Assembly (NCBI GenBank): GCA_964469295.1
Contig: CAYXYJ010000003.1
Span: 12,595 to 76,594 of the forward strand
Direction: 5' to 3'
DNA: 64,000 nucleotides
DNA from: an uncultured Candidatus Saccharibacteria bacterium
GTDB lineage: Bacteria; Patescibacteriota; Minisyncoccia; Phycocordibacterales; UBA918
Under the pieces are notes generated by a model that had not been told where the DNA came from, searched no databases, and saw nothing but the letters and a program-made list of their open reading frames with translations. Shown here piece after piece: positions 2,224-47,209 of this stretch. How positions within the stretch are numbered: position 1 is the first letter of the stretch; each line of letters starts with the position of its first letter. A program made the position numbers and the translations under genes.

Positions 2224-2658
2224 CTAATTTAGCGTGACATTATCAATAATTTTAATAGTTGCATATGTTTCACGTGGCACAAGTCGCACCGCTGCCACAT
2301 CAATTTGCCAATCACCAGTCCAATTTCGTTCAATCAGCCAACTTTCGATTGCCCGTGCTAACTTTTTCAATTTATACGGATGGACATTCTCTTCCGGTCG
2401 CCAAGTTCCATATGAAACTGCCCGTTCCAGATCGGCTTTCGTTTCATATGAAACGGTTTTGACCTCCACAAAGTGGATTTTGTTGGCCCCTTTTACAATC
2501 ACGTCAATTTCTCCCCACTTTTTTAGGTAATTCATCTCCACCACGGTAAAACCTTTCCGTTTTAGGTAATTAGCGGTAATTTGTTCGCCTTTAGCACCAA
2601 TTATCTTGTTTTGTTGCTTTTTACTCTTATTATCAGCTAGTGGTGAGGCTAGTTTCAT
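2224..2658 (-). CDS. YraN/UPF0102 family endonuclease-like protein
   Basis: The pattern GAKGEQITANYLKRKGFTVVEMNY...GEIDVIV...HFVEVKT is typical of the YraN (UPF0102) family. Confidence 0.65.
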   Translation of the reverse strand: MKLASPLADNKSKKQQNKIIGAKGEQITANYLKRKGFTVVEMNYLKKWGEIDVIVKGANKIHFVEVKTVSYETKADLERAVSYGTWRPEENVHPYKLKKLARAIESWLIERNWTGDWQIDVAAVRLVPRETYATIKIIDNVTLN

Positions 2659-21870: not shown

Positions 21871-22761
21871 GTGATGCAAGTCAGTCGAAAAGTCGCCGGT
21901 GCGTCCATCGTGGGTATGGGGTTGGTTTGTGTTGCATTTGGTATGAATATGCTTTCACACGAACAATTACAAGAACAATCAACCACCAACCCGGCGACGG
22001 TCATCAATACCCCAGCCCGGACATACATTGCGGTCACTGACACAAATGGTAACGGTATCGAAGATTGGCGCGAAGAATTCCTAACCGAAGAACCCATCGT
22101 CATGGCGAGCACCACCACGTTTGTCATGCCAGAGACTATTACCGACCAAGTCGGTATTGATATGTTTGAATCAATGGTGCGCGGCAAAGCGCTTGGTCCA
22201 TTTGCTGATACCGAAACAGAATTAGTCGATACTGCTACTGCCCGCGCGATTAAAGCTGGTACCGATACCATGTATACCGAACGGGATATTGTCACCACTA
22301 ATACCAACAACATTACAGTGCGGGCGTATGGTAACGCCTTAGGACAAAGTGTGGTCGATAACAGCAGTAAATACGGTGACGAACTCGCCATCGTCAACCG
22401 CGCCCTCCAAACCAATAACGGCACTGAGTTAGACAAACTGAACGATATTGCCCTTTCCTATAAAAAACTTCGTGATGAAGCCCTTAATACTCCCGTTCCA
22501 GACCAATTTATTCGGGTCCATCTCGATCTCATCAACACTTATAATGCGATGTATAACACCATTTCCGGCCTCCAATTAGCTGTGAGTGATCCAATGGTGG
22601 CGCTCGTCCGGATCAAACGGTACCAAGATGATGCTCTCGGGTTACAGTATGCCATCAGCAATCTGATCACCGCACTTGATCCCTATAATTCCGTCTTTTA
22701 TGCTGATGACACGGTGATGATACTCGTGGCGCTTGCTGTTATGCACGAAAATAATCTATGA
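21871..22761 (+). CDS. Hypothetical membrane-anchored or secreted protein, first gene of the T4SS-like cluster
   Basis: An N-terminal hydrophobic segment VAGASIVGMGLVCVAFGMNML precedes a hydrophilic domain. Translationally coupled to the next gene. Confidence 0.4.
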   Translation: MMQVSRKVAGASIVGMGLVCVAFGMNMLSHEQLQEQSTTNPATVINTPARTYIAVTDTNGNGIEDWREEFLTEEPIVMASTTTFVMPETITDQVGIDMFESMVRGKALGPFADTETELVDTATARAIKAGTDTMYTERDIVTTNTNNITVRAYGNALGQSVVDNSSKYGDELAIVNRALQTNNGTELDKLNDIALSYKKLRDEALNTPVPDQFIRVHLDLINTYNAMYNTISGLQLAVSDPMVALVRIKRYQDDALGLQYAISNLITALDPYNSVFYADDTVMILVALAVMHENNL

Positions 22762-24092
22762 AATCAATCACCTCAGCGTTCACCATATTCTTAATTGTTT
22801 GCGTTATTGGTACGTCAGTGCACGTGCAAAAGTCGAACGCCTTCTTTTTTGGATTATTGGGTGGGGGCATTGCTAACAATGCCTACCTTGCACAAATTGC
22901 GGCGAACACCCAAATCAGTTCCACCATGGAAAGTGCCCAAAACTCCCGAGAATTGGCCGACACTATCGCCTGGCAAGTGGCCAAACAAATGGTGAGTAAC
23001 ATGACCCGCAGTTTGATTAACTGGATTAATTCAGGGTTTCAAGGGCGACCAGCCTTTATCCAAGATTTAAACCAGTTTCTTATTGACGCACTGGATAACG
23101 TCGCCGGTGAATACATTGCCGAACTGGCGGGCAGCGATTTTATTTGTTCACCGTTTCGACTGGATGTGCAAGCCGCGCTCACTATTAATTATCAACAAGC
23201 CCGCAGTGGCATGCCCTCCGGTGGCGACGAGAGTATGTGTACGGCTACTGGTATCGTGAGTAACATCGAAAATTTCCTCAATGGCACCATTAATAGTTGG
23301 GATGAGTGGCTCACCGTGACCGCCAATCCGCAGAATACTCCATACGGCGCCTACCTTGAAGCCGAAGCCAAATTAAACGCTCGACTGGTTAATGCCGCTG
23401 GTCAAGAAATAGAAATGGCCGACTGGGGTGACGGTTTTATGTCTCAATCTGTTTGTGAACCAGTCGAAGGGGGCGGGGAAACGTGTACGGTATCCACTCC
23501 CGGAACACTCATTAACGAAGCCCTCAGCTTCCAAATCACGACCGGCCCACGATCACTCATCGAAGCGGACGAAGTCAATGAATTAATTGGTGCCTTAGTC
23601 AACCAACTCGCGCTTCAGATGGTTAATGGTATAAATGGATTATTGGGACTCAGTCAACGAAATCCTTCCACTGGCCGATCGTATCTTGACAACGCCGTCG
23701 CGGACGTACCCGATATTGACCTCACCCCTTATCGCACCGAACTTGATGCTGCCCACGCTCGAGAAGTCGCGTTTCTTACCCTGATTGACGCGACCTATGC
23801 CTCAGCGACCGCCAATCATGCCAGTACGAGTAGTAGCACCGTCGCGGGCATAGTGCGAGAACTTGAAACCTTACGTCCCCAAGTTGTCGCCAACATTGCG
23901 TCAACCTCCGCCTTACGTAACCGTTTTATTAATGCGACAAGTAGCACCGGTACGAGCACTGATAGTATCTACCAACGTATCGTTATTGATTTTCTTGCCT
24001 TAAAGAGTAACGGAACCTTACATAGTCAAGCCTATGTCGATAGTCGACGCGAATATTGGCGATTAGTTCTTGACGGTACCGAGGTTGAATAA
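22758..24092 (+). CDS. Hypothetical secreted protein (signal peptide), T4SS-cluster associated
   Basis: MKSITSAFTIFLIVCVIGTSVHV is a signal peptide. Start overlaps the previous stop (ATGA). Confidence 0.4.
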   Translation: MKSITSAFTIFLIVCVIGTSVHVQKSNAFFFGLLGGGIANNAYLAQIAANTQISSTMESAQNSRELADTIAWQVAKQMVSNMTRSLINWINSGFQGRPAFIQDLNQFLIDALDNVAGEYIAELAGSDFICSPFRLDVQAALTINYQQARSGMPSGGDESMCTATGIVSNIENFLNGTINSWDEWLTVTANPQNTPYGAYLEAEAKLNARLVNAAGQEIEMADWGDGFMSQSVCEPVEGGGETCTVSTPGTLINEALSFQITTGPRSLIEADEVNELIGALVNQLALQMVNGINGLLGLSQRNPSTGRSYLDNAVADVPDIDLTPYRTELDAAHAREVAFLTLIDATYASATANHASTSSSTVAGIVRELETLRPQVVANIASTSALRNRFINATSSTGTSTDSIYQRIVIDFLALKSNGTLHSQAYVDSRREYWRLVLDGTEVE

Positions 24093-24219
24093 TTTGCCTA
24101 TCAATTACGTGTTGCTGGGGAGTGGTTTTTGTTACTTATAGACAGTTTTTAGATAAAAAGGAGCCGCAAAACCATCATCACAATGGTATGATAGAACAGA
24201 CACTTGGAGGTCAACTGTT

Positions 24220-26400
24220 ATGTTGTCGCGTCTTTTTGCAAAACCGCTTACCCGCACCATCTGTATTGGGTTTTTTGTCGGAATTTGTTTATTTTTTGTT
24301 GGGACAATCGTCGTTTCGGCCCAAGTTACTCCTAATAGTGACTATCAGGTCGTACAGTGTACAGGTGAGGAATGTTCCAGTGGGCTGCTGAAATGGTTAT
24401 TGGATTTCGTGATTGTGGTATTTGGTAGTTTAGTGGGACTATTCGGTTCTGCTTTTGACTGGTTTATTGGTAATTTTATCATTGATTTTGGCCTTCATTA
24501 TCAATCAAGCAACTTCGGGGCAGTGATTGACGGAGTCTGGTCGACTGTTCGGGATATTTTCAATTTGACTTTTATTTTTGGTCTTATATATATCGGTTTT
24601 CAAATTATTTTGGGTACCAATGATTCTCAGGCCAAAAAAACCATTCCCATGTTGATTTTGGCGGCTCTCCTCGTTAATTTCAGTCTCTTTATTACCAAAT
24701 TTATCGTAGATTTTTCCAATATCGCTGCAGTGGAGGTCTATCAATTATTTGAAAGTTCAGCGAATGCCTATGGTAGTAGCGTTGGTGGCTATGGCGGAGC
24801 CAGTATTTCGCAAGCCTTTATGAATGCCCTCGGTATCTCTTCGCTTTTTGGTCAATTACCAGCCGGAGCAGAGTTGCTCTACATTTTTGGCATGCTGATT
24901 GTGTTTTTAGTCCTTATTTATGTGTTTCTGGCCGGCGCCATTTTAATTGCTATCCGGTTTGCAATGTTATCTTTGTACCTTGTATTTTCACCCGTAATGT
25001 TTATTGGGTGGGTATTTCCAGGATTTAATAAATATCAACAACAATTTTGGAGTGGATTCTTAGGTCAAGCATTTTTTGCTCCGGCGTTTTTATTCATGTT
25101 GTATTTGTCTTACCAAATTGTCTCGACATTTAGCGGAGATACTCACACTAATTTTAATACATTAACTGTTAGCAATGGGAGCACCGTTACGAGTGGATTT
25201 TTGGCGGTAATGCCACTATTTTTAATGACGGTGGTTTTTTTACTCGCTTCTATGGCTGTCGCCAAAGGCATGAGTCGCCAAGGCTCAGAATACGCGGTCA
25301 AAGGCGTTGATTGGATGTACAAAAAGGGAATGGGTGCGGTGAAGGGTGCCGGGCAAGCAGTTTCTTATGTCCCACGTGCTGGTGCACGATATGGAGTTAA
25401 TAAAACTGGCGAATGGAGTGAAAAGAAACTTAATAGTCTGCAAGCACGGGATGGAAAATTAGGTAAACTATTAAGTACAAACGCCGTGGATAAAGCGTTG
25501 AGAGGTGGAACAACAAAAATGCAGAAAGCCGAAATGGGTACGGGTACTACAAACAAAGCCGAGAAGGAATATAGAGCAATTACCACTAACCGTAATGCGG
25601 GTCTACAAGAAAAGAAGTCTCGTGAAGCGGCGATTGCTACCGCCGCGGCGAATTTTGCTGAACTTGATGCGTTACGCAATAAACCAAACCGTACTAATAA
25701 TGAAACAAATCGATTAATTTCTCTTGAAACTGAGGCTGCTCAAGCTCAAAATTATATTAATCAACTTGACAAGGGTGAAATCGAAAAACTCGACAAAACT
25801 ACGCGTAAGGCATACGCAACTAAATTTAATGCCGATCAAATGAAACATATTCTCGATAGCGAGAAAATTACAAATGACGAAAAGGAATCAATTATTGAAG
25901 CCCGAAGAGAGAAAATTAGAAACAACACGACATCACCTGGCAACATCATGAAGTTGACTCGCGACGAACTTGAGACATTGGGATTTGATTGGATGACAAA
26001 TAATGTCCAGAATTTAACACACTCTCAATTTGATGATTATATTAAAAACAATAAAAAACTCACTCCTGAATTAGTTAATTCATTCAAGTCAGTTAGAGAA
26101 TCGAAGATTTTGCAATCCATTGAAGACGGCTCTGCGGGTGGTTTACTGACCGAATTGAAAAAGAAACCAAAAGAATTTGCTCAGTTACCCAAACAAGTTT
26201 TCACAGATAGACGCTATGTAAATATTATCCCTTACCTGACCGTTGGAGTACTTGAACAAATTGCGCACGAGAGAATTCTTGATCAAAATCAACGGTTTGC
26301 TATAAAAGGATTTTTGACTCATGGCGGACGCGGTAGTACCCCAACTGAAGTGATTGCATATTTAAGTTCAGATAAAGGAAAAGAATATTATGGACCATAA
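24220..26400 (+). CDS. Polytopic membrane protein, VirB6/TrbL-like candidate, with long C-terminal coiled-coil extension
   Basis: A signal/TM segment and at least six TM helices fill the first ~350 aa. A ~370-aa charged coiled-coil tail follows. GGAGG RBS 8 nt upstream. The architecture is that of VirB6-like channel subunits, but sequence similarity cannot be verified here. Confidence 0.4.
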   Translation: MLSRLFAKPLTRTICIGFFVGICLFFVGTIVVSAQVTPNSDYQVVQCTGEECSSGLLKWLLDFVIVVFGSLVGLFGSAFDWFIGNFIIDFGLHYQSSNFGAVIDGVWSTVRDIFNLTFIFGLIYIGFQIILGTNDSQAKKTIPMLILAALLVNFSLFITKFIVDFSNIAAVEVYQLFESSANAYGSSVGGYGGASISQAFMNALGISSLFGQLPAGAELLYIFGMLIVFLVLIYVFLAGAILIAIRFAMLSLYLVFSPVMFIGWVFPGFNKYQQQFWSGFLGQAFFAPAFLFMLYLSYQIVSTFSGDTHTNFNTLTVSNGSTVTSGFLAVMPLFLMTVVFLLASMAVAKGMSRQGSEYAVKGVDWMYKKGMGAVKGAGQAVSYVPRAGARYGVNKTGEWSEKKLNSLQARDGKLGKLLSTNAVDKALRGGTTKMQKAEMGTGTTNKAEKEYRAITTNRNAGLQEKKSREAAIATAAANFAELDALRNKPNRTNNETNRLISLETEAAQAQNYINQLDKGEIEKLDKTTRKAYATKFNADQMKHILDSEKITNDEKESIIEARREKIRNNTTSPGNIMKLTRDELETLGFDWMTNNVQNLTHSQFDDYIKNNKKLTPELVNSFKSVRESKILQSIEDGSAGGLLTELKKKPKEFAQLPKQVFTDRRYVNIIPYLTVGVLEQIAHERILDQNQRFAIKGFLTHGGRGSTPTEVIAYLSSDKGKEYYGP

Positions 26401-27061
26401 CATTTCCAACATAAGAATGGATATCATTAAACAGGCCTCTGATAAGGTGCTGTATCTTTATAATCATGTCAGTTTGAGTAATTTTGCTTCAACACTAGAC
26501 AGTGTGTTCCACACAAATGTAGCACAGGATTATACGTTTGATTTGTTGGTTGGCGACATTATTCTCGGATTTTACCGGATTGAAGACACGGTACCACTGT
26601 TACAACAAGAGCTCGGGCTTGATCCAAAAACCGCGGCGTTATTAGGCGCAGAAGTGTTGGAATTTCTGGCACCATTATCTGATCCCAATTGGCAACCACC
26701 AGCTGAAGAAGAAATGGAGGACACGCCCGGCGAAGGGGAGGTCCCTGTAGTCGCTGCTACTGTGCCAGCTTCAACCACCACTGCTACCACCAAAACAACA
26801 GAGACCACTCCAGTCATACCAACCACCCCAACCCCACTCCATACCATGGCGGCGGATATGGCTACATTGCGACAATCGCCAACTCCGGCGCCAAGCTACC
26901 TGGGAGCACCGACCCCGGTCGAAACGGTTTATCGTTCTGAACAACCGCCGTTGCGGCAAACGTTATCTGATTTGCCAACCTATCAATCACCATCGACACC
27001 ACCGGTTCAACCGCCGACTCCAGCCGCATCTGATCGACCACGATGGAGTACTGACTATTAA
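26390..27061 (+). CDS. Hypothetical Pro/Thr-rich protein (cluster-associated)
   Basis: 223 aa with no TM. Overlaps the upstream gene by 11 nt. Confidence 0.35.
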   Translation: MDHNISNIRMDIIKQASDKVLYLYNHVSLSNFASTLDSVFHTNVAQDYTFDLLVGDIILGFYRIEDTVPLLQQELGLDPKTAALLGAEVLEFLAPLSDPNWQPPAEEEMEDTPGEGEVPVVAATVPASTTTATTKTTETTPVIPTTPTPLHTMAADMATLRQSPTPAPSYLGAPTPVETVYRSEQPPLRQTLSDLPTYQSPSTPPVQPPTPAASDRPRWSTDY

Positions 27062-27127
27062 GTGGAGTAAACAGTGGGCGGGCATAGCCCGCCCGCTGTT
27101 TACTATTCCCATGTATAATAAGCGGAC

Positions 27128-27538
27128 ATGCAGTTTGAAACACCACAATTTATTGAAATTGATGATAAAATCTTTGGCCCCTTAACATGGAAACAATTTC
27201 TTTATGTATTTGGTGGTGGCATTATGACCTTGGTGCTTTTTTTCATGGTACCATTTATTGTCTTTTTACTCATTGGGGTACCGATCGCCGCTCTTTCTGC
27301 CGCTTTGGCGTTTTACCCCATTAACAATCGACCTTTCGAGAATTTTCTCGAAGCGATGTTTAATTATTTTAGTCGGCAGCGGCTGTATCACTGGCAACAA
27401 AAGAAGAATGTCGTGTATCGCGATACTGACACCACCAGTGTTCACAATCCTATTCTCACCGATACCCTCATGAAAAAACGCGACATCAGTGCGATTGCCC
27501 GCCGACTGGAAATTGATGCCATTCAAAAGAAACAATAA
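27128..27538 (+). CDS. Small two-TM membrane protein, VirB3/PrgI-like candidate
   Basis: 136 aa. IEIDDKIFGPLTWKQFLYVFGGGIMTLVLFFMVPFIVFLLIGVPIAALSAALAF shows two hydrophobic helices immediately upstream of VirB4, the conserved VirB3-VirB4 order. Confidence 0.4.
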   Translation: MQFETPQFIEIDDKIFGPLTWKQFLYVFGGGIMTLVLFFMVPFIVFLLIGVPIAALSAALAFYPINNRPFENFLEAMFNYFSRQRLYHWQQKKNVVYRDTDTTSVHNPILTDTLMKKRDISAIARRLEIDAIQKKQ

Positions 27539-27543
27539 TTACT

Positions 27544-28167
27544 ATGGCCAATTCTTCTACCGCTACCCAAGATTTTGTTCCAATCCGTGATATCCAAAAC
27601 GGGATGGTGATTCTTAAAAACGGCCAGTTATGCAAAGTCCTCCTCGCTTCATCCATCAATTTTGCGTTGAAATCAAGTGATGAACAACGAGCTATTTTGT
27701 TTCAGTTTCAAAACTTTCTTAACACGTTAGATTTTTCGATACAAATTTACGTCCAGTCACGACGGCTAAATATCGAACCATACATAGCAAACCTTGAAGC
27801 GCTCGAACCTATCCAATACAACGATTTGATGCGAGTGCAGTTGCGTGAATACATTGAATTTATCCGCACGTTTACCACCGAAGTGGACGTCATGAGTAAA
27901 AATTTCTTTCTCGTTATTCCGTACACGGCGCCCCGTATTGATATTAAAAAAAGCGTTGCTAGTGTACTTGGTCGTGGGAAAATTCTGGAAACAAACACTC
28001 TTGAAGAGCAACGGTTGCAACTTGAACAACGACAATCAGTCGTCGAACAAGGATTAAATCGCATTGGTGTTCGTACCATCGAATTAAATACCGACGAATT
28101 GGTCGAGTTGTTCTATCACATATACAACCCCACTGATGTCACCGGCGCCGCGCCTAAGGTACAATAA
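27544..28167 (+). CDS. VirB4/TrbE-family ATPase, N-terminal domain piece (split gene or frameshift)
   Basis: DFVPIRDIQNGMVILKNGQLCKVLLASSINFALKSSDEQRAILFQFQNFLNTLDFSIQIYVQSRRLN matches the conserved N-terminal region of Gram-positive-type VirB4 proteins. It stops 5 nt before the ATPase ORF, which is in another frame. Confidence 0.55.
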   Translation: MANSSTATQDFVPIRDIQNGMVILKNGQLCKVLLASSINFALKSSDEQRAILFQFQNFLNTLDFSIQIYVQSRRLNIEPYIANLEALEPIQYNDLMRVQLREYIEFIRTFTTEVDVMSKNFFLVIPYTAPRIDIKKSVASVLGRGKILETNTLEEQRLQLEQRQSVVEQGLNRIGVRTIELNTDELVELFYHIYNPTDVTGAAPKVQ

Positions 28168-28172
28168 AATGT

Positions 28173-29969
28173 ATGGGACTATTCGATAAACTTGCGGGCA
28201 ATAATAACACCAGCCCCATTGAAAACGTCAGCGAGGGGTTATTAACCCTCACCGATGTGATTGCGCCGTCAGCAGTATCCATCGGACCACGTAGTGTCAA
28301 TATCAGTGGTACCATTGCTCGGGTATTTCATGCGGTGGCGTACCCGCGGTTTCTTACTGATGGTTGGCTTGAACCAATTCTAAATCTCGAAAAGGAACTG
28401 GATGTATCGATTGTCATTCATCCCATGGATACCGCCGAAACGTTAAAACGCCTCCAGAAAAAAGTGGCTGAAGTCCAGAGCCAAATCAACGTGCGCGCCA
28501 GTAATGGTCAAGTGCGTGACCCCCAACTCGAAGCCGCCTATCGCAACATCGAAGATCTCCGCGACAAATTACAACAATCGGAAGAAAAAATGTTTAAGGT
28601 GGGATTGTACATTGCGATTTATGGCGATTCTGATACCAAAGTAAACAAAGTGGAAAATGATATTAAAGGGATTCTCGATTCACGGTTAATCTACATCAAG
28701 CCGAGCCTCTTTAAACAAGAGCAGGGGATTCATAGCGTGTTGCCAACTGCCACCGATGAGCTCCTCGAACACAGCCAATTTAATTCTTCACCCTTATCTA
28801 GTTTCTTTCCGTTTACCTCATTTGATCTCACCTCTGATAACGGCATTTTATACGGTATCAATCGTCACAATTCCTCACTCGTGCTCTTTGATCGTTTTTC
28901 TCTGACGAACTACAACTCCGTGACGTTTGCTACCTCTGGTGCCGGGAAGTCATACAGTATCAAACTGGAAATTCTCCGGTCACTCATGTTCGGAACGGAA
29001 GTCATCGTCATCGATCCCGAACGAGAATATGAATATCTCGCCGAATCAACTGGCGGCCGCTTCTTTAATATTTCACTGTCTTCCGAGCACCACATCAATC
29101 CGTTTGATATTCCACCACCCAGTGATGATGAGGAACCTGCCGACGTATTACGATCGCAAATTGTTCATTTAATTGGCTTATTCCGTTTGATGCTTGGTGG
29201 TCTATCGCCTGAGGAAGAAACCATTATTGATTTGGCCGTCCGGGAAACGTACGCACTTAAAGATATCACTGAGCAGAGTAATTTTGCTGAACTCGAACCA
29301 CCGTTGTTATCGGATTTTGAAATGGTACTCGCTGGGATGAACGGGAGCGGGTCACTTATCAGCCGGCTACAAAAATACACCTCGGGTACCTGGTCTGGGT
29401 TTATGAACCAACCAACCAACGTTGATATCAACCAAAAATTTGTCGTCTTTAGTCTGCGTGACATGGAAGACGAATTAAAGACCATCGCCATGTTTATTAT
29501 CACCAACTACATTTGGGCCGCCATTCGGCGGCGGTTGGTAAAGCGTCTTCTCGTCATTGATGAAGCGTGGTGGATGATGAAATCCGAAGATACCGCTTCG
29601 TTTTTATTCTCGCTTGCAAAACGCGGCCGTAAATATTATTTGGGTATCGCAACTATTACCCAAGACGTGGACGATTTTTTGCGTTCTCCCTATGGTGTGC
29701 CGATGATCACGAACTCTTCGCTCCAATTTCTGATGAAGCAGTCACCGACGGCGATTGATAACATTCAACGGACTTTCAATTTAACGGATGAAGAAAAGTA
29801 CCTGTTACTCGAATCCGATGTGGGGGAAGGGCTTTTCTTTGTAGGATTGAAACACGTCGCCATCAAAGTCATCGCCTCCTACACCGAAGACCAAATCATT
29901 ACGTCCGATCCGTCGCAATTGCTCAAAATTCAAACCGCTCGACGCGAATTACGCAAACGTGGTGTGTAG
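28173..29969 (+). CDS. VirB4/TrbE-family conjugal transfer ATPase (C-terminal two-thirds)
   Basis: IAPSAVSIGPRSVNISGTIARVFHAVAYPRFLTDGWLEPIL (VirB4 pattern); Walker A TSGAGKSYS; Walker B LLVIDEAWWMM. The upstream in-frame region stays open back to 28158, consistent with a -1 frame change joining it to the N-terminal piece. Confidence 0.8.
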   Translation: MGLFDKLAGNNNTSPIENVSEGLLTLTDVIAPSAVSIGPRSVNISGTIARVFHAVAYPRFLTDGWLEPILNLEKELDVSIVIHPMDTAETLKRLQKKVAEVQSQINVRASNGQVRDPQLEAAYRNIEDLRDKLQQSEEKMFKVGLYIAIYGDSDTKVNKVENDIKGILDSRLIYIKPSLFKQEQGIHSVLPTATDELLEHSQFNSSPLSSFFPFTSFDLTSDNGILYGINRHNSSLVLFDRFSLTNYNSVTFATSGAGKSYSIKLEILRSLMFGTEVIVIDPEREYEYLAESTGGRFFNISLSSEHHINPFDIPPPSDDEEPADVLRSQIVHLIGLFRLMLGGLSPEEETIIDLAVRETYALKDITEQSNFAELEPPLLSDFEMVLAGMNGSGSLISRLQKYTSGTWSGFMNQPTNVDINQKFVVFSLRDMEDELKTIAMFIITNYIWAAIRRRLVKRLLVIDEAWWMMKSEDTASFLFSLAKRGRKYYLGIATITQDVDDFLRSPYGVPMITNSSLQFLMKQSPTAIDNIQRTFNLTDEEKYLLLESDVGEGLFFVGLKHVAIKVIASYTEDQIITSDPSQLLKIQTARRELRKRGV

Positions 29970-29983
29970 TATACTAGTGACAT

Positions 29984-30634
29984 ATGGCCGAACCGCGCTA
30001 CCAAACTATCGATAGTGATTTTCGTGATGAGCAAGAAAAGCGAACTGGATTTGGCATCAGAAACGCTCAAATGCAAACCGGCAACGTACGCCAACAACCA
30101 AGACAATTAATGGCAGAAGAGGGGAAATCCCCAACACCAACCCGACCAGGGAAAATGAGTGTCCCAAAATCAAGCGCTTTCGGTAGTCCAAAAAAACTGG
30201 CGGTTAATCGAGCCAAAGCAACAGCCACCACCCTCCAAATCGTATTATGGGCCGTTGTGCCATCGTTTTTTGTGTTTATTGTCTGCATTGTTTGTTTAAT
30301 AACCTTTGGTGCCTACAATATGACCCCAACCTGGATTCAAGAAGGGGTAAACAAAGTAGCATATATACTCGGTTGGCAACAAGACGTCCTCCAAACGTTG
30401 TTTTGGATTACGTATATCATACAAATGGTAACGGTCCTTACTATCATGGCTGGTGTTGTTGCTCATTATTCCATTCGGGGTGTCCGGTGCTTGGGGGGAA
30501 GAGAGGCTGGTGTGTTTAAAAAAATGATTTTTGGCATGATGGCTGTTTTTTGTTTTATTCCAGGCACGCCGATACTTGTCATACCAATTTTTGGTACCTG
30601 TTGGATGTTATTGGTTTGCGCCTATCCCAACTAA
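29984..30634 (+). CDS. Hypothetical membrane protein (4 predicted TM helices)
   Basis: An N-terminal ~90-aa soluble basic region is followed by four hydrophobic helices. Confidence 0.4.
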   Translation: MAEPRYQTIDSDFRDEQEKRTGFGIRNAQMQTGNVRQQPRQLMAEEGKSPTPTRPGKMSVPKSSAFGSPKKLAVNRAKATATTLQIVLWAVVPSFFVFIVCIVCLITFGAYNMTPTWIQEGVNKVAYILGWQQDVLQTLFWITYIIQMVTVLTIMAGVVAHYSIRGVRCLGGREAGVFKKMIFGMMAVFCFIPGTPILVIPIFGTCWMLLVCAYPN

Positions 30635-30675
30635 CCACTCGTAGAGTGACTAGTCGATTGCTATACTTATGATGT

Positions 30676-31638
30676 ATGCGATTGTTATGTAGCCTGTTCA
30701 TTTTGATGTGGGTGTTGCCCCTGACTACCAACGCTCAATTTACGCAATCATTGTTTAATGAGCAATTTGCTATTTCGGTATCGCCACAATACCCGAATCC
30801 TGGCGACACCGTCACCGCAACAGTGAATGATTATTCACTTGGTGCTACTGGTGGTTCAATTGCCTGGTTTATTGACGGGAAAGCGGCTACATCAAGCGTG
30901 AACGCTCGATCAATCACCTTTATTGCGGGGGCACCACTTACTCCCACAACCGTGCGTGCTGATTTACGGCTCGGTACCGGGGAAGTATTAACTGCCTCAC
31001 AAACTATCGTCCCACGCTATCTCGATATCATTGTCGAACCACAGACATATGTACCACAATGGTATAGTGGTCGCGCTTTACCCACCAACGGATCTTTGGT
31101 GCGACTTACGGCACTGCTCCACGGCCAAAATGGCCCAGTTGACCATACGGCCTATACGTATACTTGGAAAGTAAATAATAATGTCATTGGCGGTGGTGGG
31201 GTTCGCGGTGGCTACCAAACCACTTACACCGTCCCGATTGGACAATCACACTTGGTATCTCTAGAAATTACCGATACTACCGGTCGGATGGTGAGTAAAA
31301 AAAATATCACAGTCGGTACCGGCGAAGTTGACGCAGTTTTATATGAAGCCAACCAACTCTATGGTCTCGGTCACCGGGCCATCGGGAATAATCGTGTCAT
31401 GACTGGAAATTCATTAACCATTGAAGCCGTTCCTTATAATCTTGATCTGCGAGCGTTATACGGCAACATTTTTACTGAATGGAAAATTAACAATCAAAAA
31501 GTCACTGAAGTGGGTAAAAGTCCTTTTACCATTACTCTCGGTCGACAGGGTTTTGGTGCGGTAACCTTAGGTTTCAAGGTACGAAATCCTGACGCCCTCC
31601 TCCAGGGTGACGAAGTCAGTACGGTATTACAATTTTAA
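30676..31638 (+). CDS. Hypothetical secreted beta-rich protein
   Basis: MRLLCSLFILMWVLPLTTNAQ is a signal peptide; 320 aa. Confidence 0.4.
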   Translation: MRLLCSLFILMWVLPLTTNAQFTQSLFNEQFAISVSPQYPNPGDTVTATVNDYSLGATGGSIAWFIDGKAATSSVNARSITFIAGAPLTPTTVRADLRLGTGEVLTASQTIVPRYLDIIVEPQTYVPQWYSGRALPTNGSLVRLTALLHGQNGPVDHTAYTYTWKVNNNVIGGGGVRGGYQTTYTVPIGQSHLVSLEITDTTGRMVSKKNITVGTGEVDAVLYEANQLYGLGHRAIGNNRVMTGNSLTIEAVPYNLDLRALYGNIFTEWKINNQKVTEVGKSPFTITLGRQGFGAVTLGFKVRNPDALLQGDEVSTVLQF

Positions 31639-31640
31639 TT

Positions 31641-32819
31641 ATGAAAAAGATTTGGCTTTTTATCCTTGGCGGTATCCTCATCATTGTATTGGGAGGATTT
31701 TGGATATACAGTTTTCTCTATGGCAGTACTAGTAACAGTAGTGCTGTCTTTACCGATTTTAATCTCTTTGGTGGCAATGACACCCCAATAGTCACCGAGC
31801 CACTGCCACCACCAGTCACGGAAACACCAACCGTTGATGTCGCCAGTGCACCATTGCGACAATTAACGACGAGACCAGTCATTGGTATGCGGGCGATTAC
31901 TGTTGGTACCACTACCGTTATGCGGTATGTCGAAGCGGGTACCGGACATGTCTTTGCGATTGATTTAACCACAGGCGCCGAAACGCGAATTTCACAAATT
32001 TCGGTACCGGTGGCTAGTGAAGCGGTGTTCAGTCCGAGTGGCCAATACGTCGCCATTCGTTCTGGGTACGATACCACCAACGAAGTGAGTGTTATCAATC
32101 TTGATGCCATGACGCCAACATCTACCGTTTTGCCGTACCAAATTGAAGATGTTACCTTCGGGTACAATAACCAACTGTGGTTTACCGAATTTGTGAGTGG
32201 TAAAACGGTTGGAAAACAGTACGACCCTACCACTCGGCTCACAACAAATTTATTCACTATTCCATTTACGGCCGTCACCATTGAATGGAGTACCAGCAGC
32301 AGTACACCGCACTACGCGTATACCAAACCAGCGCCAGATTTTATTGGGTATGGCTACGAAATTAAAAATGGTGGCATCGTGCGCCTACCCTATAGTGGCT
32401 ACAATGTACGACTTTATAGTGTCAACGCTGGACTGGTTATTACCAAATCAGAAGGGGTAAATGGCCAAATAGCAAGCTATTTCTATCATGGTGATGATAA
32501 CGGTAGCCGATCAGTCTATCCAATTTTGGGCCACGAAAAATGTGTGTCCCTGACTCGAACCGGAGTATTTTGCGCCACCAATGACAATACGTATCAAAAC
32601 AGCACTCAACTCACCCGCTGGAGCATGGGGGTATTGTCAAGTTCTGACACCTTGTATCAAATTGGTTTCAGCGGATCGGCACAACGGATATTGGAATTAA
32701 AAACGGAAACTGGTCGAGATATTGATGTCATGAATATGGACAAAACAATCGACGGGAAAATGGTATACTTTACCAACGCCAACGATAAAACCCTGTGGGT
32801 CTATGACATCGATAATTAA
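31641..32819 (+). CDS. Hypothetical N-terminally anchored extracytoplasmic protein
   Basis: KKIWLFILGGILIIVLGGFWIY is an anchor followed by a beta-rich domain. Directly follows the previous gene (TAATTATG). Confidence 0.4.
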   Translation: MKKIWLFILGGILIIVLGGFWIYSFLYGSTSNSSAVFTDFNLFGGNDTPIVTEPLPPPVTETPTVDVASAPLRQLTTRPVIGMRAITVGTTTVMRYVEAGTGHVFAIDLTTGAETRISQISVPVASEAVFSPSGQYVAIRSGYDTTNEVSVINLDAMTPTSTVLPYQIEDVTFGYNNQLWFTEFVSGKTVGKQYDPTTRLTTNLFTIPFTAVTIEWSTSSSTPHYAYTKPAPDFIGYGYEIKNGGIVRLPYSGYNVRLYSVNAGLVITKSEGVNGQIASYFYHGDDNGSRSVYPILGHEKCVSLTRTGVFCATNDNTYQNSTQLTRWSMGVLSSSDTLYQIGFSGSAQRILELKTETGRDIDVMNMDKTIDGKMVYFTNANDKTLWVYDIDN

Positions 32820-33945
32820 CCGCGGTACATTTTTTGTAGCTGGCCTCATTACCATTATCTGGTGTGGTTTTTTTACTGTAGCTTTGGCTGCTGACTATGT
32901 ACCACTCGTGAATATCCCGGCGGTCGCCAACCCCAACAACATCAACGACTATATTAACGCGTTATATAATTTATCGATTAGTATCGCGGCCTTGATTGCG
33001 GTGGTCAAGATTGTTATCGCTGGTGCCAAGTGGATGTTTGGAAGTACTTCGATTAGTAGTATTCAAAGTGCGAAACAAGACATTCAAAATGCGTTAATTG
33101 GGTTGTTGATTATTATTGGTGCCGTGTTGATTCTAAATACTATCAATAGCGATTTGACCAACCTCACCATTTTTGATGAAAGTGATAGGGTAGTGGTAAA
33201 TGATACGCCGTCCAATGGTTTGTTTGTCACTATGGATCAAATAAAGGCAGCTTGTGAAGAAAATCCTGAGGCTATGGATTGTAGCCTGGAAATACGTTGC
33301 AATGACAATGACATTGGTAACTTCATTTTTGGTAGCGCGTTTTGGGGAAATATGGAATATATAACTAATCCCAACGATATTAGCTTAAGTTGTGGAGTGA
33401 TTTGCAAAAACATCGGTGGATATATGGATTACGGCTTGGCAATAGACGGAACAGACGCAAAGTGCCATATCAGTAAAACTTTAATGAACAATTTAATTAG
33501 CGACTATTTTGAAAAATTAGTGACAGATCAATGCTCATCTGGACGGGTTGATGGTGAAATCTGTCAGATTGAACTTTGTAGTGAACACGACTTAAACAAT
33601 AATACCTACAATGGAAATAGCCAACAAGATTTTAGTAGATGCGAAGCAGAATGTCTAGAAGAAAGACAGGGCTCTTATTTTGACACTCGTAGTGGTGCTT
33701 GTATATTTACGGGTGATTATTACCTGACCGAGGAAGAATGTTCGGAACGCGTTCATATGACCTGGTCTGACGAAGAAAATGTTTGTTATGACCAAACCAC
33801 GACTCAAAGCATTGCGTGTGATTTCTTTGAAAGTACTGGTACCTATGATTGTAGTATAGCGAGAGGCGAGTGTATTGATAATACTGATGTACCAGGAACA
33901 CCAGTTACCGCTGCCGACGGGCGATCTATTTACTGTGTACAGTAG
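32803..33945 (+). CDS. VirB2/TrbC-like pilin-type module fused to a ~260-aa Cys-rich extracellular domain
   Basis: Signal peptide ending ALA-ADY, then two hydrophobic helices (LSISIAALIAVVKIVIAGAKWMF and ALIGLLIIIGAVLILNTI). This is the classic T4SS pilin topology in the first ~125 aa. A domain with more than 20 Cys follows (CEENPEAMDCSLEIRCNDND...CIDNTD...). Overlaps the upstream gene by 17 nt. Confidence 0.4.
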   Translation: MTSIINRGTFFVAGLITIIWCGFFTVALAADYVPLVNIPAVANPNNINDYINALYNLSISIAALIAVVKIVIAGAKWMFGSTSISSIQSAKQDIQNALIGLLIIIGAVLILNTINSDLTNLTIFDESDRVVVNDTPSNGLFVTMDQIKAACEENPEAMDCSLEIRCNDNDIGNFIFGSAFWGNMEYITNPNDISLSCGVICKNIGGYMDYGLAIDGTDAKCHISKTLMNNLISDYFEKLVTDQCSSGRVDGEICQIELCSEHDLNNNTYNGNSQQDFSRCEAECLEERQGSYFDTRSGACIFTGDYYLTEEECSERVHMTWSDEENVCYDQTTTQSIACDFFESTGTYDCSIARGECIDNTDVPGTPVTAADGRSIYCVQ

Positions 33946-33962: not shown

Positions 33963-34694
33963 TTATCGATGCTTGCGAACAATGAGTTCCTGCACCACCA
34001 TGGTGAGGTTACTAACAATAAAATATAACGCGATGGCGGCTGAGAAGGTGTAGGAAATGAACGTCGTAAAGATTGGCATGACGTATTTCATCTGCAACTG
34101 CATATTGCGCATAAAATCATCTTTAAAATCTGCCGTTTCACCAGACTTTTTTGGTGGTAATGTAGGCAATGATAGCGACGTACTGGCAAACTGCGTAATC
34201 CCTGCAAGAAGGGCCAAGGCCAGACTCGCTTCGGCGATATTAAAGTGACCCAAAAATAACATCGATATTTCATCCGGCATCGGAACAAACGAATATAAAA
34301 TTTCCGGATTAATATTTGGTAGTTTGATACCACCACTACCATACATCGCCACAATACCTAAAGCAATAATCACCGGAAGCTGGATAAACAGCACAAGAAT
34401 ACTGGCAAACGGACTGACTCCGGCCTCTTTATATAATTCCATCATCGCTTTCGCTTGCGCTTCACGGTTGTCTTTGTGGGAGAGTTTAATTTCTTTAAGT
34501 TTTGGTTCAATCTCACGCATTGCTTTTTGTGTTTTCACCATTTTAATTGACAGTGGAAAGAGGAGTACCTTGACCCCAATAACGGTCGCAATAATCGCTA
34601 ACCCCACATCGCCGTGCGGAAAAACATCCAAAAAGAAAACGAGGGTGTTGTAAATTGGATCAAAGAAAAACGAGTGCCAAATAAATGAAAACAT
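33963..34694 (-). CDS. yidC: YidC/Oxa1-family membrane protein insertase (short form)
   Basis: 243 aa; GLAIIATVIGVKVLLFPLSIKMVKTQKAMREIEPKLKEIK is typical of the YidC core; downstream of rnpA. Confidence 0.8.
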   Translation of the reverse strand: MFSFIWHSFFFDPIYNTLVFFLDVFPHGDVGLAIIATVIGVKVLLFPLSIKMVKTQKAMREIEPKLKEIKLSHKDNREAQAKAMMELYKEAGVSPFASILVLFIQLPVIIALGIVAMYGSGGIKLPNINPEILYSFVPMPDEISMLFLGHFNIAEASLALALLAGITQFASTSLSLPTLPPKKSGETADFKDDFMRNMQLQMKYVMPIFTTFISYTFSAAIALYFIVSNLTMVVQELIVRKHR

Positions 34695-35568: not shown

Positions 35569-36975
35569 ATGCTTGGTACGTTACCTTCCTGTATGCAACC
35601 AACCACTCATCAACCAACAAACAGCATCGTCCGTACCGAACAGATTGACGTAAAAAAACTGTGGGATGATGCGTTGGTAAAAATTGAGTTGGGAATTACT
35701 CCCGCTAATTTCAAAACTTGGTTTCGCGATACTCAAATTATTTCACTTGAAGATGGTACTCTCACGATTGGTGTGCCTAGTGTCTTTGTACGTGATTGGT
35801 TGCAAGACAAATTTCAATCAATGATTTTAAAAACTCTCCGTGAATTAACTCCCTATGTGCGGAGCCTCGAATATGCCGTGGTACAACGGAGTGATCGACG
35901 GACAGAAACTACTAAGACTCAAACCATCAACGCTGCGTTGCCACTTGAAGATTATTACATCAATAAAAGTGATAACTTAAATCCAAAATATTCTTTTGAA
36001 AATTTTGTGGTTGGTCCCTACAATGCACTGGCTCACGCTGCGGCCAAAACTGTATCGGAAAAACCTGGTATTGCTTATAATCCACTGTTTATTTATGGAA
36101 AAACCGGTCACGGTAAAACTCACTTGATTCAAGCGGTGGGTAATCAAATCAAAAAAACTGGCAAAAAAGTATTTTATGTAACCAGTGAACGCTTTGCAGT
36201 TGATTATTTTAATGCCCTCCAAAGTGGCAGTGCCAATAGTTTCAAAGATAAATACCGCCAATATGATGTTCTCATCATGGACGATGTACAATTTTTAGCC
36301 ACCAAGGAAAAAACTCAAGAGGAATTGTTTCATCTTTTTAATGCTCTCCATGATACGAACAAACAAATCGTTTTCTCGAGTGATATGCACCCAGCATTAT
36401 TATCTGGCATGGAAGATCGATTGCGATCGCGGTTTGCTCAGGGAATGATTGTTGATATTCCAACCCCAGACACCGAATCCCGCGCCGCGATTTTGCGTGC
36501 CAAAGCGGCCCAAAACAGCATTACTTTAAGTGACGATGTAGTGGAACACCTCGCCACCACCATCGAAGGAAATATCCGTGAACTAGAGGGGGCGTTAAAT
36601 ACTATTATGTGTCAGTCACAACTACTTGGTCGGACACTTACGATTGATGAAGTAAAAGCTATCATCAAAAACAGCTCTCGTCCGCGCAAAACCCTCGCAG
36701 TTGGGGATGTGGTTGATAAAGTGGCTCGGTTTTTCGACATCGACGCGGCCAGTATTTACGAAAAAACCAGACGAAAAGAAGTAGTGAAGCCCCGACAAAT
36801 TATCATGTTTATTTTACGGGAAGACTTCCAGGTATCATATCCCGCCATTGGTAAAAAATTAGGTGGTCGCGACCACACCACAGTTATTCATTCCTGTGAA
36901 AAAATTAAACACGATATCAAACTTGATAAAGAACTTGAAGAGGAAATTACCCAAGTGCGATTACTCCTTAAATAA
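35569..36975 (+). CDS. dnaA: Chromosomal replication initiator protein DnaA
   Basis: AAA+ core GKTGHGKTHL, LIMDDVQFL, and C-terminal DNA-binding helix ...MFILREDFQVSYPAIGKKLGGRDHTTVIHSCEKI. The annotated start lies 7 nt after a -10 box, so the true start may be the ATG at 35593. Confidence 0.95.
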   Translation: MLGTLPSCMQPTTHQPTNSIVRTEQIDVKKLWDDALVKIELGITPANFKTWFRDTQIISLEDGTLTIGVPSVFVRDWLQDKFQSMILKTLRELTPYVRSLEYAVVQRSDRRTETTKTQTINAALPLEDYYINKSDNLNPKYSFENFVVGPYNALAHAAAKTVSEKPGIAYNPLFIYGKTGHGKTHLIQAVGNQIKKTGKKVFYVTSERFAVDYFNALQSGSANSFKDKYRQYDVLIMDDVQFLATKEKTQEELFHLFNALHDTNKQIVFSSDMHPALLSGMEDRLRSRFAQGMIVDIPTPDTESRAAILRAKAAQNSITLSDDVVEHLATTIEGNIRELEGALNTIMCQSQLLGRTLTIDEVKAIIKNSSRPRKTLAVGDVVDKVARFFDIDAASIYEKTRRKEVVKPRQIIMFILREDFQVSYPAIGKKLGGRDHTTVIHSCEKIKHDIKLDKELEEEITQVRLLLK

Positions 36976-37354: not shown

Positions 37355-38449
37355 ATGAAAGTAACGGTCAATCAACAAGAACTCATCAACACCCTTGAAC
37401 TCTTAACACGGGTGAGTACCAAACACGTCACCTTACCTGTGTTGCAGTGTGTTCATATTAAAACGTTTGATACGAAAATAGTTTGTACTACCACCAATCT
37501 TGAAATTAGTATTGAATCACCAGTAACAGCAACCGTAATCGAAGCTGGTGTGGTAGCGGTCTACGCACAAACTTTATTACAGTCAATTCAATATAATACC
37601 CAAAAAGACATCACCTTAACGGCAGTTGATGGGGTGTTAAAAATTGAAAGTGGGCGAAGTGTTACAAAAATTAATACAATGGTGGCTGATGATTTTCCGA
37701 TTATTACTCACCTTGAAACCACAGGGGTGATGGTAAAAAGACAAACATTTGCTCTTGGTATTAAAACTGTTGCTTTCGCAGCGTCGGTATCATCTATTAA
37801 GCCAGAATTAGGAAGTGTCTTTATTCAACAAAAAAAAGAACATTCCCTTACCTTTGTAGCGACTGATTCATTTCGTTTAATGGAAAAAACCGTGCCACAA
37901 CAAGGGGTGATATTATCACAATCGCTTCTCGTTCCACAAAAAAATGCGATTGAATTAGCGCGGGTGTGTGAGGTGTTAACGGAAGATCCTGAACTTCTGG
38001 TTACTGATAATCAATGTGCTTTACGGTTTCCGAATGGGGTGTATGTTATTTCTCGCTTGGTAGCAGGAACTTTCCCTGATTATGAAGCAATTATTCCAAA
38101 AGAATATACCACTCATGTAACAGTGTTAAAACAAGACTTGGTGCAGTGTTTTAAAAAGACACAAATTTTCTTAAATAAATTTATGCAGGTGACTCTTGGA
38201 GTGTCTGATGGATCTTTGTTAGTATCGTCTCAAAACGGTGAATTAGGTACTACCGAAGATGTTGTGCGTGTGGATACTGAGGGATCTCCGTTAACACTTA
38301 ATTTTAATCAGCAGTACGTTCTTGATCCACTTTCACATATTACCGACGACAGTATTGTTTTACATTTTGCTGGGATTGGCAGACCGTTGGTATTAGGAGG
38401 GGTGGCTGATATATCTTTGCGGTATTTAGTGATGCCGATGAATCGATAA
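37355..38449 (+). CDS. dnaN: DNA polymerase III beta subunit (sliding clamp)
   Basis: 364 aa with three-domain clamp organisation. N-terminus MKVTVNQQELINTLELLTRV. Position immediately after dnaA. Confidence 0.9.
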   Translation: MKVTVNQQELINTLELLTRVSTKHVTLPVLQCVHIKTFDTKIVCTTTNLEISIESPVTATVIEAGVVAVYAQTLLQSIQYNTQKDITLTAVDGVLKIESGRSVTKINTMVADDFPIITHLETTGVMVKRQTFALGIKTVAFAASVSSIKPELGSVFIQQKKEHSLTFVATDSFRLMEKTVPQQGVILSQSLLVPQKNAIELARVCEVLTEDPELLVTDNQCALRFPNGVYVISRLVAGTFPDYEAIIPKEYTTHVTVLKQDLVQCFKKTQIFLNKFMQVTLGVSDGSLLVSSQNGELGTTEDVVRVDTEGSPLTLNFNQQYVLDPLSHITDDSIVLHFAGIGRPLVLGGVADISLRYLVMPMNR

Positions 38450-45432: not shown

Positions 45433-45479
45433 AAACGACAAACGCGGACGGCCCAAAGGGCCGTCCGCGTTTGTCGTTT
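45433..45479. terminator. Terminator aaacgacaaacgcggacggccc-aaa-gggccgtccgcgtttgtcgttt
   Basis: A perfect 22-bp palindrome directly after the pilB stop. Confidence 0.8.
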
Positions 45480-47209
45480 TACACGATGTGAGAAAAAAAG
45501 TCGTCATCATGGTCATCGCTTTTTGTATCCGTCACGACGCGCCGACTTTGATTAACATCAACAACCCGTTCCAATTCGTCAAACGTCGTCAGGCCAGATA
45601 ATACTTTAATTAATCCATCTTGAAGCATGGTGGGAATATGTTGTGGCAAGGCTGCGTCAAGTATCATGTGTTCTCGTGGGTCACGAATGACAATGTCTTC
45701 CACTCGATCATCCATCGCAATAGCTTCAAATACGCCGACCCGACCAGAAAATCCAGTATGACCACACGCATCACAACCGACACTGTCGTACACCACCGTA
45801 TGACCATCTATTGTTACTGGCTCGGGGTAAGAACTCAGTGCTTTTTTTGCCATGGTAATTTCTTCGGTTGAAATTACTCGGGGTTTTTTACAGTGTTCAC
45901 AGAGAACGCGAACCAAACGTTGCCCTAACATAATATTAAGTGAACTACTAATAATACGAGGGTCAACGCCTAAATCAATTAAGCGAGGGAATCCACCGGC
46001 GGCGCTGTTGGTGTGGAGGGTAGAGAAGACAAGGTGTCCCGTTTGAGCGGCGTGAATCGCCGTTTCCGCTACTTCACGATCACGGATTTCGCCAATCATA
46101 ATGATATCGGGGTCTTGACGTAAAATCGCTCGCAAGCCTGACGCAAAAGAATAATCTGGACCGGTTTGGGTTTGTACAATACCATCAAGTTTATATTCAA
46201 CCGGGTTTTCAATCGTAATGATTTTTTTCTCACTATCATGTACCGCCCGTAAAAAGGCATACAGCGCAGTGGTTTTTCCGGAACCAGTTGGGCCGGTGGT
46301 AATAATGAGTCCGTTTGGACGTTTTAACTCTTGTTCCATTCTGGCCCGTAAAAACGGATTAAGGGCCAGTTTATCCATACTGAAACTGGCTACTCCCGGA
46401 TCAAGTAATCGCATAACGATTGATTCGCCGACAGCGCCCGGAATGATTGAACTACGTACTTCAATGGCTCGTTCGCCAAACACAAATTCAAACCGACCAT
46501 CCTGGGCTTCTTTCCGTTCGTTTAGCCGCATGCCCGACAGTAATTTCAAACGTGACATCAAGCGACCGTACAAATGATTGTCAATAGTGGCGACATCTAA
46601 AAGCACACCATCAAGACGATATCGTAAACGAATATGTTGTTCGGTTGGTTCAATATGAATATCTGAAGCACGCAACGCGAGGGCTCCGGCAAACATCAGT
46701 TCGAGAGTTTCGGAAATGCGGCGCGGACTATTAATGCGTGATACCGTATCAATAGCGGTGGCGACATCCTCGATGTTTTCCATGGTATGTGCGCGTCGCA
46801 AAATATCATCAGGATTGATATCCAATACCCCTTTTTTGCTTGCGGTGGTGGTTTTTTGGTCAGCATATCGGGCCAATCCGTGATCAATACTGGCGGTAGA
46901 GGCGATGTGGGGTAGCACGGTAAAGCCCTTTTTTTCTAGGAGCGCCAAGGCGGCTTTGGTAGCAGTATCATTCGGGCGATTAACTGCTACTGACAAAGTA
47001 TTCCGCATTAACGCAAAGGCCACCAGCCGTGATTCTTTGGCAGTTCGTTCAGGAATTTTCATGAGTGCTTCGGGATTGATGGTGACACCAAATAAATTGA
47101 CATACGGAATCCCGTACTGTGGTGCCAGGGCACGCAAATATTCTTCTTCGCCCCGTTTTCGTAAATCAGCGATGTGCGAAAGAGCGTTTGTATCATTAAA
47201 ATCTACCAT
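45479..47209 (-). CDS. Type II/IV secretion system ATPase GspE/PilB family
   Basis: N-terminal T2SSE_N-like domain, Walker A GPTGSGKTT, Asp box, Walker B, and a CxxC...CxxC tetracysteine motif (CEHCK...CDACGHTG); 576 aa. No other pil or gsp genes adjacent. Confidence 0.85.
   Translation of the reverse strand: MVDFNDTNALSHIADLRKRGEEEYLRALAPQYGIPYVNLFGVTINPEALMKIPERTAKESRLVAFALMRNTLSVAVNRPNDTATKAALALLEKKGFTVLPHIASTASIDHGLARYADQKTTTASKKGVLDINPDDILRRAHTMENIEDVATAIDTVSRINSPRRISETLELMFAGALALRASDIHIEPTEQHIRLRYRLDGVLLDVATIDNHLYGRLMSRLKLLSGMRLNERKEAQDGRFEFVFGERAIEVRSSIIPGAVGESIVMRLLDPGVASFSMDKLALNPFLRARMEQELKRPNGLIITTGPTGSGKTTALYAFLRAVHDSEKKIITIENPVEYKLDGIVQTQTGPDYSFASGLRAILRQDPDIIMIGEIRDREVAETAIHAAQTGHLVFSTLHTNSAAGGFPRLIDLGVDPRIISSSLNIMLGQRLVRVLCEHCKKPRVISTEEITMAKKALSSYPEPVTIDGHTVVYDSVGCDACGHTGFSGRVGVFEAIAMDDRVEDIVIRDPREHMILDAALPQHIPTMLQDGLIKVLSGLTTFDELERVVDVNQSRRVVTDTKSDDHDDDFFSHIV

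Follow-up and report, generated by a model that had tools for sequence, protein, structure and literature searches.

Where two neighbouring open reading frames (ORFs) together resemble a single VirB4 ATPase but lie in different frames, the question arises whether one gene has been broken, or whether two genes stand side by side. Such a pair occupies positions 27544–29969 of a stretch of 64,000 nucleotides (nt), here called the window, from an uncultured Candidatus Saccharibacteria bacterium (assembly GCA_964469295.1, contig CAYXYJ010000003.1). A preliminary description of this DNA presented the locus as one VirB4 divided into two ORFs by a frame change within an A-rich tract, and offered four options: a sequencing or homopolymer error, a recent pseudogenising frameshift, programmed −1 frameshifting or a genuine two-subunit VirB4. 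The analysis reported here leaves little doubt, as far as comparative sequence data can decide, that these are two separate genes of a chromosomal, origin-proximal type IV secretion system (T4SS) of a Paceibacteria/Kaiserbacteria-like member of the Patescibacteria, one TrsD-like and the other encoding a TrsE-like VirB4 ATPase. The split is ancient and fixed, and the relative reading frames are incidental.

The upstream frame, ORF-N, extends from 27544 to 28167 on the forward strand and encodes 207 amino acids (aa), with a C-terminus of ...TGAAPKVQ followed by a TAA stop codon at 28165–28167. A spacer of 5 nt, AATGT (28168–28172, forward strand), separates it from the ATG at 28173 that opens ORF-C, which continues on the same strand to 29969, encodes 598 aa and lies in frame −1 (equivalently +2) with respect to ORF-N. 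Upstream of its ATG, the frame of ORF-C is closed by a TAA at 28155–28157 and open from 28158, leaving an overlap of 7 nt (28158–28164) before the ORF-N stop. The coordinates, stop, start and open frame first described agree with the sequence, as does the suggestion that a single −1 shift would give a VirB4 of ~805 aa: in a simulation of all single-base insertions and all 2-base deletions around the junction, a fused ORF of 807–808 aa arose, and only from events within 28155–28166 (TAAGGTACAATA). The A-rich tract, on the other hand, has to be set aside as the site of a frame change. The AAAA run at 28166–28169 overlaps and trails the ORF-N stop, and gain or loss of an A within it gives no fusion, while the longest homopolymer within 28155–28166 is 2 nt. 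The shift window reads GGTACAA, and the final 66 nt of ORF-N contain no slippery heptamer of the form X XXY YYZ.

ORF-C is identified by NCBIfam, Pfam and the Protein Data Bank (PDB) alike as a TrsE-like, VirB4-family ATPase devoid of the first ~200 residues. It reaches 359.4 bits against the NCBIfam CD1110 VirB4-like model NF045971 (cut-off 325; positions 179–733 of 752) and covers positions 250–725 of TIGR00929 and 293–893 of VirB4_plasma. Its Pfam families are P-loop_TraG (PF19044, 91 bits against a cut-off of 25.8), AAA_10 and DUF87, and it matches the C-terminal domain of Thermoanaerobacter VirB4 (PDB 4AG5) with an E-value of 1e-38. Read from the translation, both the Walker A motif GAGKS (residues 256–260; 28938–28952, forward strand) and the Walker B region VIDEAW (residues 461–466; 29553–29570, forward strand) are intact. 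The full VirB4 N-terminal domain is not within ORF-C, its matches beginning only at about 179, 250 and 293 of the three NCBIfam models, and the absent part is ORF-N.

The latter is a TrsD-like, free-standing homologue of the VirB4 N-terminal subdomain, according to NCBIfam models, fold and homologues. Its matches to these VirB4 models lie at their N-termini (TIGR00929 4–176, VirB4_plasma 99–235, CD1110 2–84), and it also covers positions 14–200 of 201 of the TrsD/TraD model NF041427 (E 4.8e-6, 26.5 bits). Among diverse relatives of ORF-N, all 68 match the VirB4 N-terminus and 57 the TrsD model, with a best E-value of 9.9e-10. An AlphaFold2 model of ORF-N, with a predicted local distance difference test (pLDDT) score of 86.3, has R388 TrwK/VirB4 as each of its top 14 PDB fold matches, with no other solved structure found (E down to 1.4e-4, template modelling score 0.52–0.64, ~210 aligned columns). 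A sequence profile search of the PDB with the relatives of ORF-N yielded just ZnuA (E 0.53), which is not meaningful; the relation to VirB4 is visible only by fold and through the NCBIfam VirB4 models. PF26593 (TraC-like) is present in the precomputed annotation of the identical protein P0001 and of all 120 homologues, whereas an hmmscan of ORF-N against a local Pfam copy, from which this model is possibly absent, gave no family. The two products are, judging by model coverage, complementary, colinear and non-overlapping pieces of VirB4 which together tile the full-length protein, and the initial assignment of the ORFs as an N-terminal piece and an ATPase body is borne out by the VirB4 models that each matches in turn.

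The search for relatives of ORF-N retrieved 6,723 homologues. The best 120 of these (70–84% identity) are all 206–210 aa in length and have a common C-terminus, ..D.TG.AP..Q. The best 150 representatives of clusters formed at 50% identity, which are 33–68% identical to ORF-N, include 149 short, stand-alone proteins and a single fused one (P0150, described below). Among more distant TrsD-like representatives (P0161–P0245), a sizeable minority have 280–430 aa, with N- or C-terminal extensions.

The junction itself was surveyed in 80 orthologous loci, one per GTDB species, drawn entirely from independently assembled Patescibacteria metagenome-assembled genomes (MAGs). In every one, a stop codon is present at the position homologous to the TAA at 28165–28167 (forward strand), which is thus a genuine stop; TAA closes 64 of the ORF-N homologues, TAG 15 and TGA 1. 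A spacer of 1–82 nt (median 7) follows, and then an ATG with a conserved M-[GAS]-[LIF]-[FL]-D N-terminus. A fused TrsD-VirB4 was found in none of the 80. The second gene is in relative frame 0, +1 or +2 in 25, 27 and 28 loci, respectively, as expected for a spacer of unconstrained length; where both genes have the same frame, one or two in-frame stops, some of them double, lie between them. Contrary to the first account, a frame change is therefore not what divides this VirB4. The junction nucleotides show no conservation past coding constraint and the overlap window is missing in many orthologues. The orthologues of ORF-C are mostly 595–611 aa long, 72 of the 76 complete ORFs falling within 590–615 aa. 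The remaining 4 are of odd length (80, 111, 536 and 810 aa), which in those MAGs may stem from true frameshifts, broken assemblies or an extension.

Both genes are evidently under very strong purifying selection, as estimated from the ratio of non-synonymous to synonymous substitution rates (dN/dS). In the least saturated pair the ratio is 0.017 for the TrsD-like gene and 0.010 for virB4, and it lies at 0.01–0.04 for both genes across the comparisons with an estimable, non-saturated dS. Synteny is stable. The order PrgI-TrsD-VirB4 is kept in 78–80 of the 80 loci: a PrgI-like gene of the same strand precedes the pair in 78, and the TrsD-like gene adjoins virB4 in all 80.

Taken together, the junctions of the 80 loci, the stand-alone homologues, the purifying selection and the synteny exclude three of the four options first offered and favour the two-subunit VirB4. 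A sequencing or assembly indel, such as a homopolymer error, would mean that the true gene encodes a single VirB4 of ~808 aa. One inserted base within 28155–28166 would indeed give an ORF of 808 aa, and the relative P0150 is a single ORF of 797 aa; but 80 of 80 loci and the 120 closest proteins have the same two-gene layout and the stop in the same place. In one third of the orthologues, stop codons separate two genes that share a frame. With no homopolymer longer than 2 in the critical interval, and no fusion from A indels in the AAAA run, this explanation has a negligible probability. It would be hardly more credible to see here a formerly intact VirB4 that a recent frameshift is turning into a pseudogene, for which the frame difference itself, and nothing more, speaks. 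Relatives down to 33% identity have the split in common, dN/dS is 0.01–0.04 with saturated dS for both parts, the ATG and N-terminal motif of ORF-C are conserved, and the TrsD/TrsE pair of plasmid pSK41 has the same split point. The 7 nt of open ORF-C frame ahead of the ORF-N stop, where a −1 shift would fuse the products, could be taken as a sign of programmed frameshifting that yields a fused VirB4 besides or instead of two proteins. The missing slippery heptamer, the even distribution of relative frames, the frequent loss of the overlap window among orthologues and junction nucleotides unconserved apart from coding constraint make this extremely improbable as well. Comparison of the junction in orthologous loci, which had been proposed at the outset as a check, thus returned the two-ORF arrangement anticipated for a genuine split, although the canonical ribosome binding site that was to accompany it is inapplicable in a lineage that hardly uses Shine–Dalgarno (SD) sites.

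A rather different alternative accepts both genes and assumes that ORF-N has been exapted, having descended from the VirB4 N-terminus but now acting as a T4SS accessory protein in its own right that no longer works with VirB4. TrsD homologues without virB4 association are reported from Gracilibacteria (Quiñonero-Coronel et al., 2025), and some relatives have C-terminal extensions up to ~430 aa. Against this, the gene adjoins virB4 strictly, in 80 of 80 loci and with a tiny spacer, its product and ORF-C are colinear with and complementary to both full-length VirB4 and the fused relative, and the VirB4 N-terminal fold is retained in the predicted model. Exaptation is accordingly considered unlikely, if somewhat less so than error, decay or recoding.

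Under the two-gene reading, the TrsD-like and ATPase polypeptides would reassemble non-covalently into a VirB4-like unit, in which the TrsD piece would stand in for the N-terminal subdomain of VirB4, the part that touches VirB3 at the membrane in R388. The role of VirB3 would fall here to the PrgI-like protein encoded just upstream, and a hexamer of ORF-C would power assembly and transport. Translation of ORF-C probably starts at its own conserved ATG without an SD sequence, by termination-reinitiation across the 5-nt spacer, from a leaderless transcript arising at a TACAAT box, or both.

The second ORF had been described as lacking a good ribosome binding site, which is true but in no way special: SD-like motifs precede 4 of the 46 window genes against a background of 6%, and are present at 1 of the 80 orthologous junctions. 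A −10-like hexamer (TATACT, TATAAT or TACAAT) ending 5–11 nt before the start is found in 12 of the 46 window genes, a 13-fold enrichment over a background of 2%, which suggests that mRNAs with very short leaders, or none, are common in this genome. Window genes that exemplify this are those at 2224–2658 (reverse strand), 5092, 8204, 15534, 15927, 21871, 27128, 28173, 29984, 30676, 31641 and 45479–47209 (reverse strand). At the junction, the hexamer TACAAT (28160–28165, forward strand), which overlaps the final codons and the stop of ORF-N and lies 7 nt ahead of the ORF-C ATG, is a candidate internal promoter. A sigma-70 promoter scan pairs it with ATGTCA at 28136–28141, with an 18-nt spacer and 9 of 12 matches. 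Among the orthologues, 17 of 80 have a strict −10-like hexamer 3–12 nt upstream of the ORF-C start (background 2.2%). A tentative proposal, rather doubtful at present, is that the TrsD-like gene carries a promoter in the region of its stop codon, its conserved terminal codons and stop (..GTA/ATA CAA TAA) forming a TACAAT box 5–11 nt before the VirB4 ATG from which the ATPase would be expressed on its own leaderless mRNA. If this is true, the TrsD:VirB4 stoichiometry would be set independently, and this could be the selective reason for keeping the split.

Several findings weigh against the interpretation as a TrsD-like and a TrsE-like gene. ORF-N, at 26.5 bits, does not reach the 200 bits that NCBI has set as the curated TrsD/TraD cut-off, and is by that threshold a remote relative outside the family. 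Comparison of the ORF-N family profile with pSK41 TrsD (hhalign) gives a match that is supportive but modest, with a probability of 74%, an E-value of 2.7e-5 and 19% identity over 172 columns. In the sigma-70 promoter scan, fewer sites were found in the region than in shuffled sequences, and TACAAT alone is not significant. Finally, the fused relative P0150 suggests that a single chain is also viable. This protein of 797 aa (GCA_964615945.1, contig CAZTUR010000004.1, locus L082, positions 544–2937), the sole fusion among the best 150 cluster representatives, aligns to ORF-N with residues 1–212 and to ORF-C with residues 226–791; PrgI is encoded upstream of it and yidC, rnpA and dnaA downstream. 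Its linker, ..RQG-MGG-VAS.., contains an in-frame MGG which looks like the relic of a former VirB4 start and would fit a stop-loss fusion from the same-frame arrangement. As P0150 is known from a single contig, it could have arisen either by natural stop loss or through misassembly.

With regard to TrsD membership, ORF-N thus fails on score but has every architectural feature of the family. It is a stand-alone homologue of the VirB4 N-terminus within the ~200–230 aa of the TrsD proteins, and its gene stands between that of a VirB3-like protein and that of a TrsE-like VirB4 shortened at the N-terminus, with the same split point.

The surroundings of the pair are those of a T4SS locus. The first gene of the PrgI-TrsD-VirB4 trio, at 27128–27538 on the forward strand, encodes a PrgI/VirB3-like small membrane protein of 136 aa (Pfam PF12666, E 1.1e-9, above cut-off). 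A TATAAT −10-like hexamer (27114–27119, forward strand) lies 8 nt before its ATG and may mark the start of a leaderless transcript. Just before this box, a consensus scan located a GC-rich hairpin with a T-rich tail, GGCGGGC-ATAGC-CCGCCCGC (27077–27097, forward strand), that is terminator-like on both strands and possibly marks the boundary of the PrgI-TrsD-VirB4 transcription unit. The T4SS-like cluster as a whole spans ~22758–33945 and adjoins yidC (33963–34694, reverse strand), dnaA (35569–36975, 5.6 kb away) and dnaN (37355–38449); with these three genes directly downstream, the cluster lies beside the replication origin. Its last protein (32803–33945, 380 aa) has weak N-terminal Pfam matches to TrbC/VirB2 and T4SS_pilin (E 4e-4 and 2e-3). 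The combination of VirB4 and TrsD, PrgI/VirB3, VirB2-like pilins and proximity to the origin, by which Patescibacteria T4SS loci are recognised, is therefore present, weak as the pilin matches are. The 380-aa protein also carries a long cysteine-rich C-terminal extension, and a homologue is detectable in 13 of the 80 loci. Further upstream, 24220–26400 encodes a possibly VirB6-like polytopic membrane protein of 726 aa, without a Pfam match and conserved in 67 of the 80 loci. Its gene shares 11 nt with the one at 26390–27061, whose product of 223 aa has a Pro/Thr-rich, low-complexity C-terminal half and is found in 28 of the 80 loci.

A separate TrsD-like gene directly before VirB4 is already known across Patescibacteria T4SS (Quiñonero-Coronel et al., 2025), and the present locus is one more example of it. 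Its value for annotation is that such a junction should be neither flagged as a frameshift or pseudogene nor merged into one ORF. What is new lies in the detail, namely the random relative frames, the tiny spacers, the absence of SD sequences and the frequent −10-like boxes at the junctions.

In comparison with single-chain VirB4 (R388 TrwK, Agrobacterium VirB4; TIGR00929), ORF-N and ORF-C cover the whole protein. The predicted fold of ORF-N matches the TrwK N-terminus, and ORF-C corresponds to the remainder of the VirB4 N-terminal domain together with the Walker A/B ATPase domain. They differ in being two polypeptides and in the ~15% identity of the N-terminal piece. Fusions of VirB3 with VirB4, known from some conjugative systems, represent the opposite rearrangement (Quiñonero-Coronel et al., 2025). 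Like the present locus, they show that the domain boundaries around VirB3 and the N-terminus of VirB4 are plastic in evolution; here, in contrast, the PrgI-like VirB3 is separate, VirB4 is divided further and nothing is fused.

A closer parallel is found in the TrsD-TrsE pair of pSK41/pGO1 (MPF_FATA, pGO1 subclass). In Staphylococcus aureus pSK41, trsC (VirB3-like) is followed by trsD (227 aa), a 14-nt spacer and trsE (672 aa, VirB4-like). The order VirB3-like/TrsD/VirB4-like is thus common to both, the PrgI-like gene being the counterpart of trsC. Residue 1 of ORF-C aligns with residue 3 of pSK41 TrsE (E 5e-39), which puts the split at one and the same point in both and supports a shared origin with the conjugation systems of monoderms. 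TraD-TraE of pIP501 is grouped with TrsD-TrsE by the NCBIfam family name. The spacer is short in both (14 nt in pSK41, 5 nt here), and TrsD is of similar size (227 against 207 aa). The differences concern sequence similarity, the TrsD part being only remotely similar and ORF-C 25% identical to TrsE. Moreover, pSK41/pGO1 serve plasmid conjugation with a relaxase and a coupling protein, whereas the present system, which has VirB2-like pilins, is chromosomal and origin-proximal and belongs to an epibiont lineage.

The nearest counterpart is the TrsD and VirB4 pair of the Patescibacteria themselves, where TrsD is found next to VirB4 across the group (Quiñonero-Coronel et al., 2025, Microb Genom, PMC12102498). 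That survey names TrsD as the most abundant T4SS component, with 2,272 homologues of which 1,664 are associated with virB4, and describes the T4SS as often origin-proximal. TrsD is listed there as essential in Ca. Southlakia epibionticum (Wang et al., 2023, as cited in PMC12102498), and, by the same account, epibiotic growth requires the T4SS in the single species tested. For the homology between TrsD and VirB4 the survey cites Guglielmini et al. (2014; PMC4027160), in whose main text the word TrsD is absent; the homology is taken here from the statement in the survey and from the tests reported above. In both cases a TrsD of ~210 aa directly precedes VirB4, PrgI/VirB3 is encoded upstream, VirB2-like pilins are nearby and the locus is origin-proximal. 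There is no material difference between the two, and the frames, spacers and translation signals at the junction, which are not discussed in that survey, are documented here.

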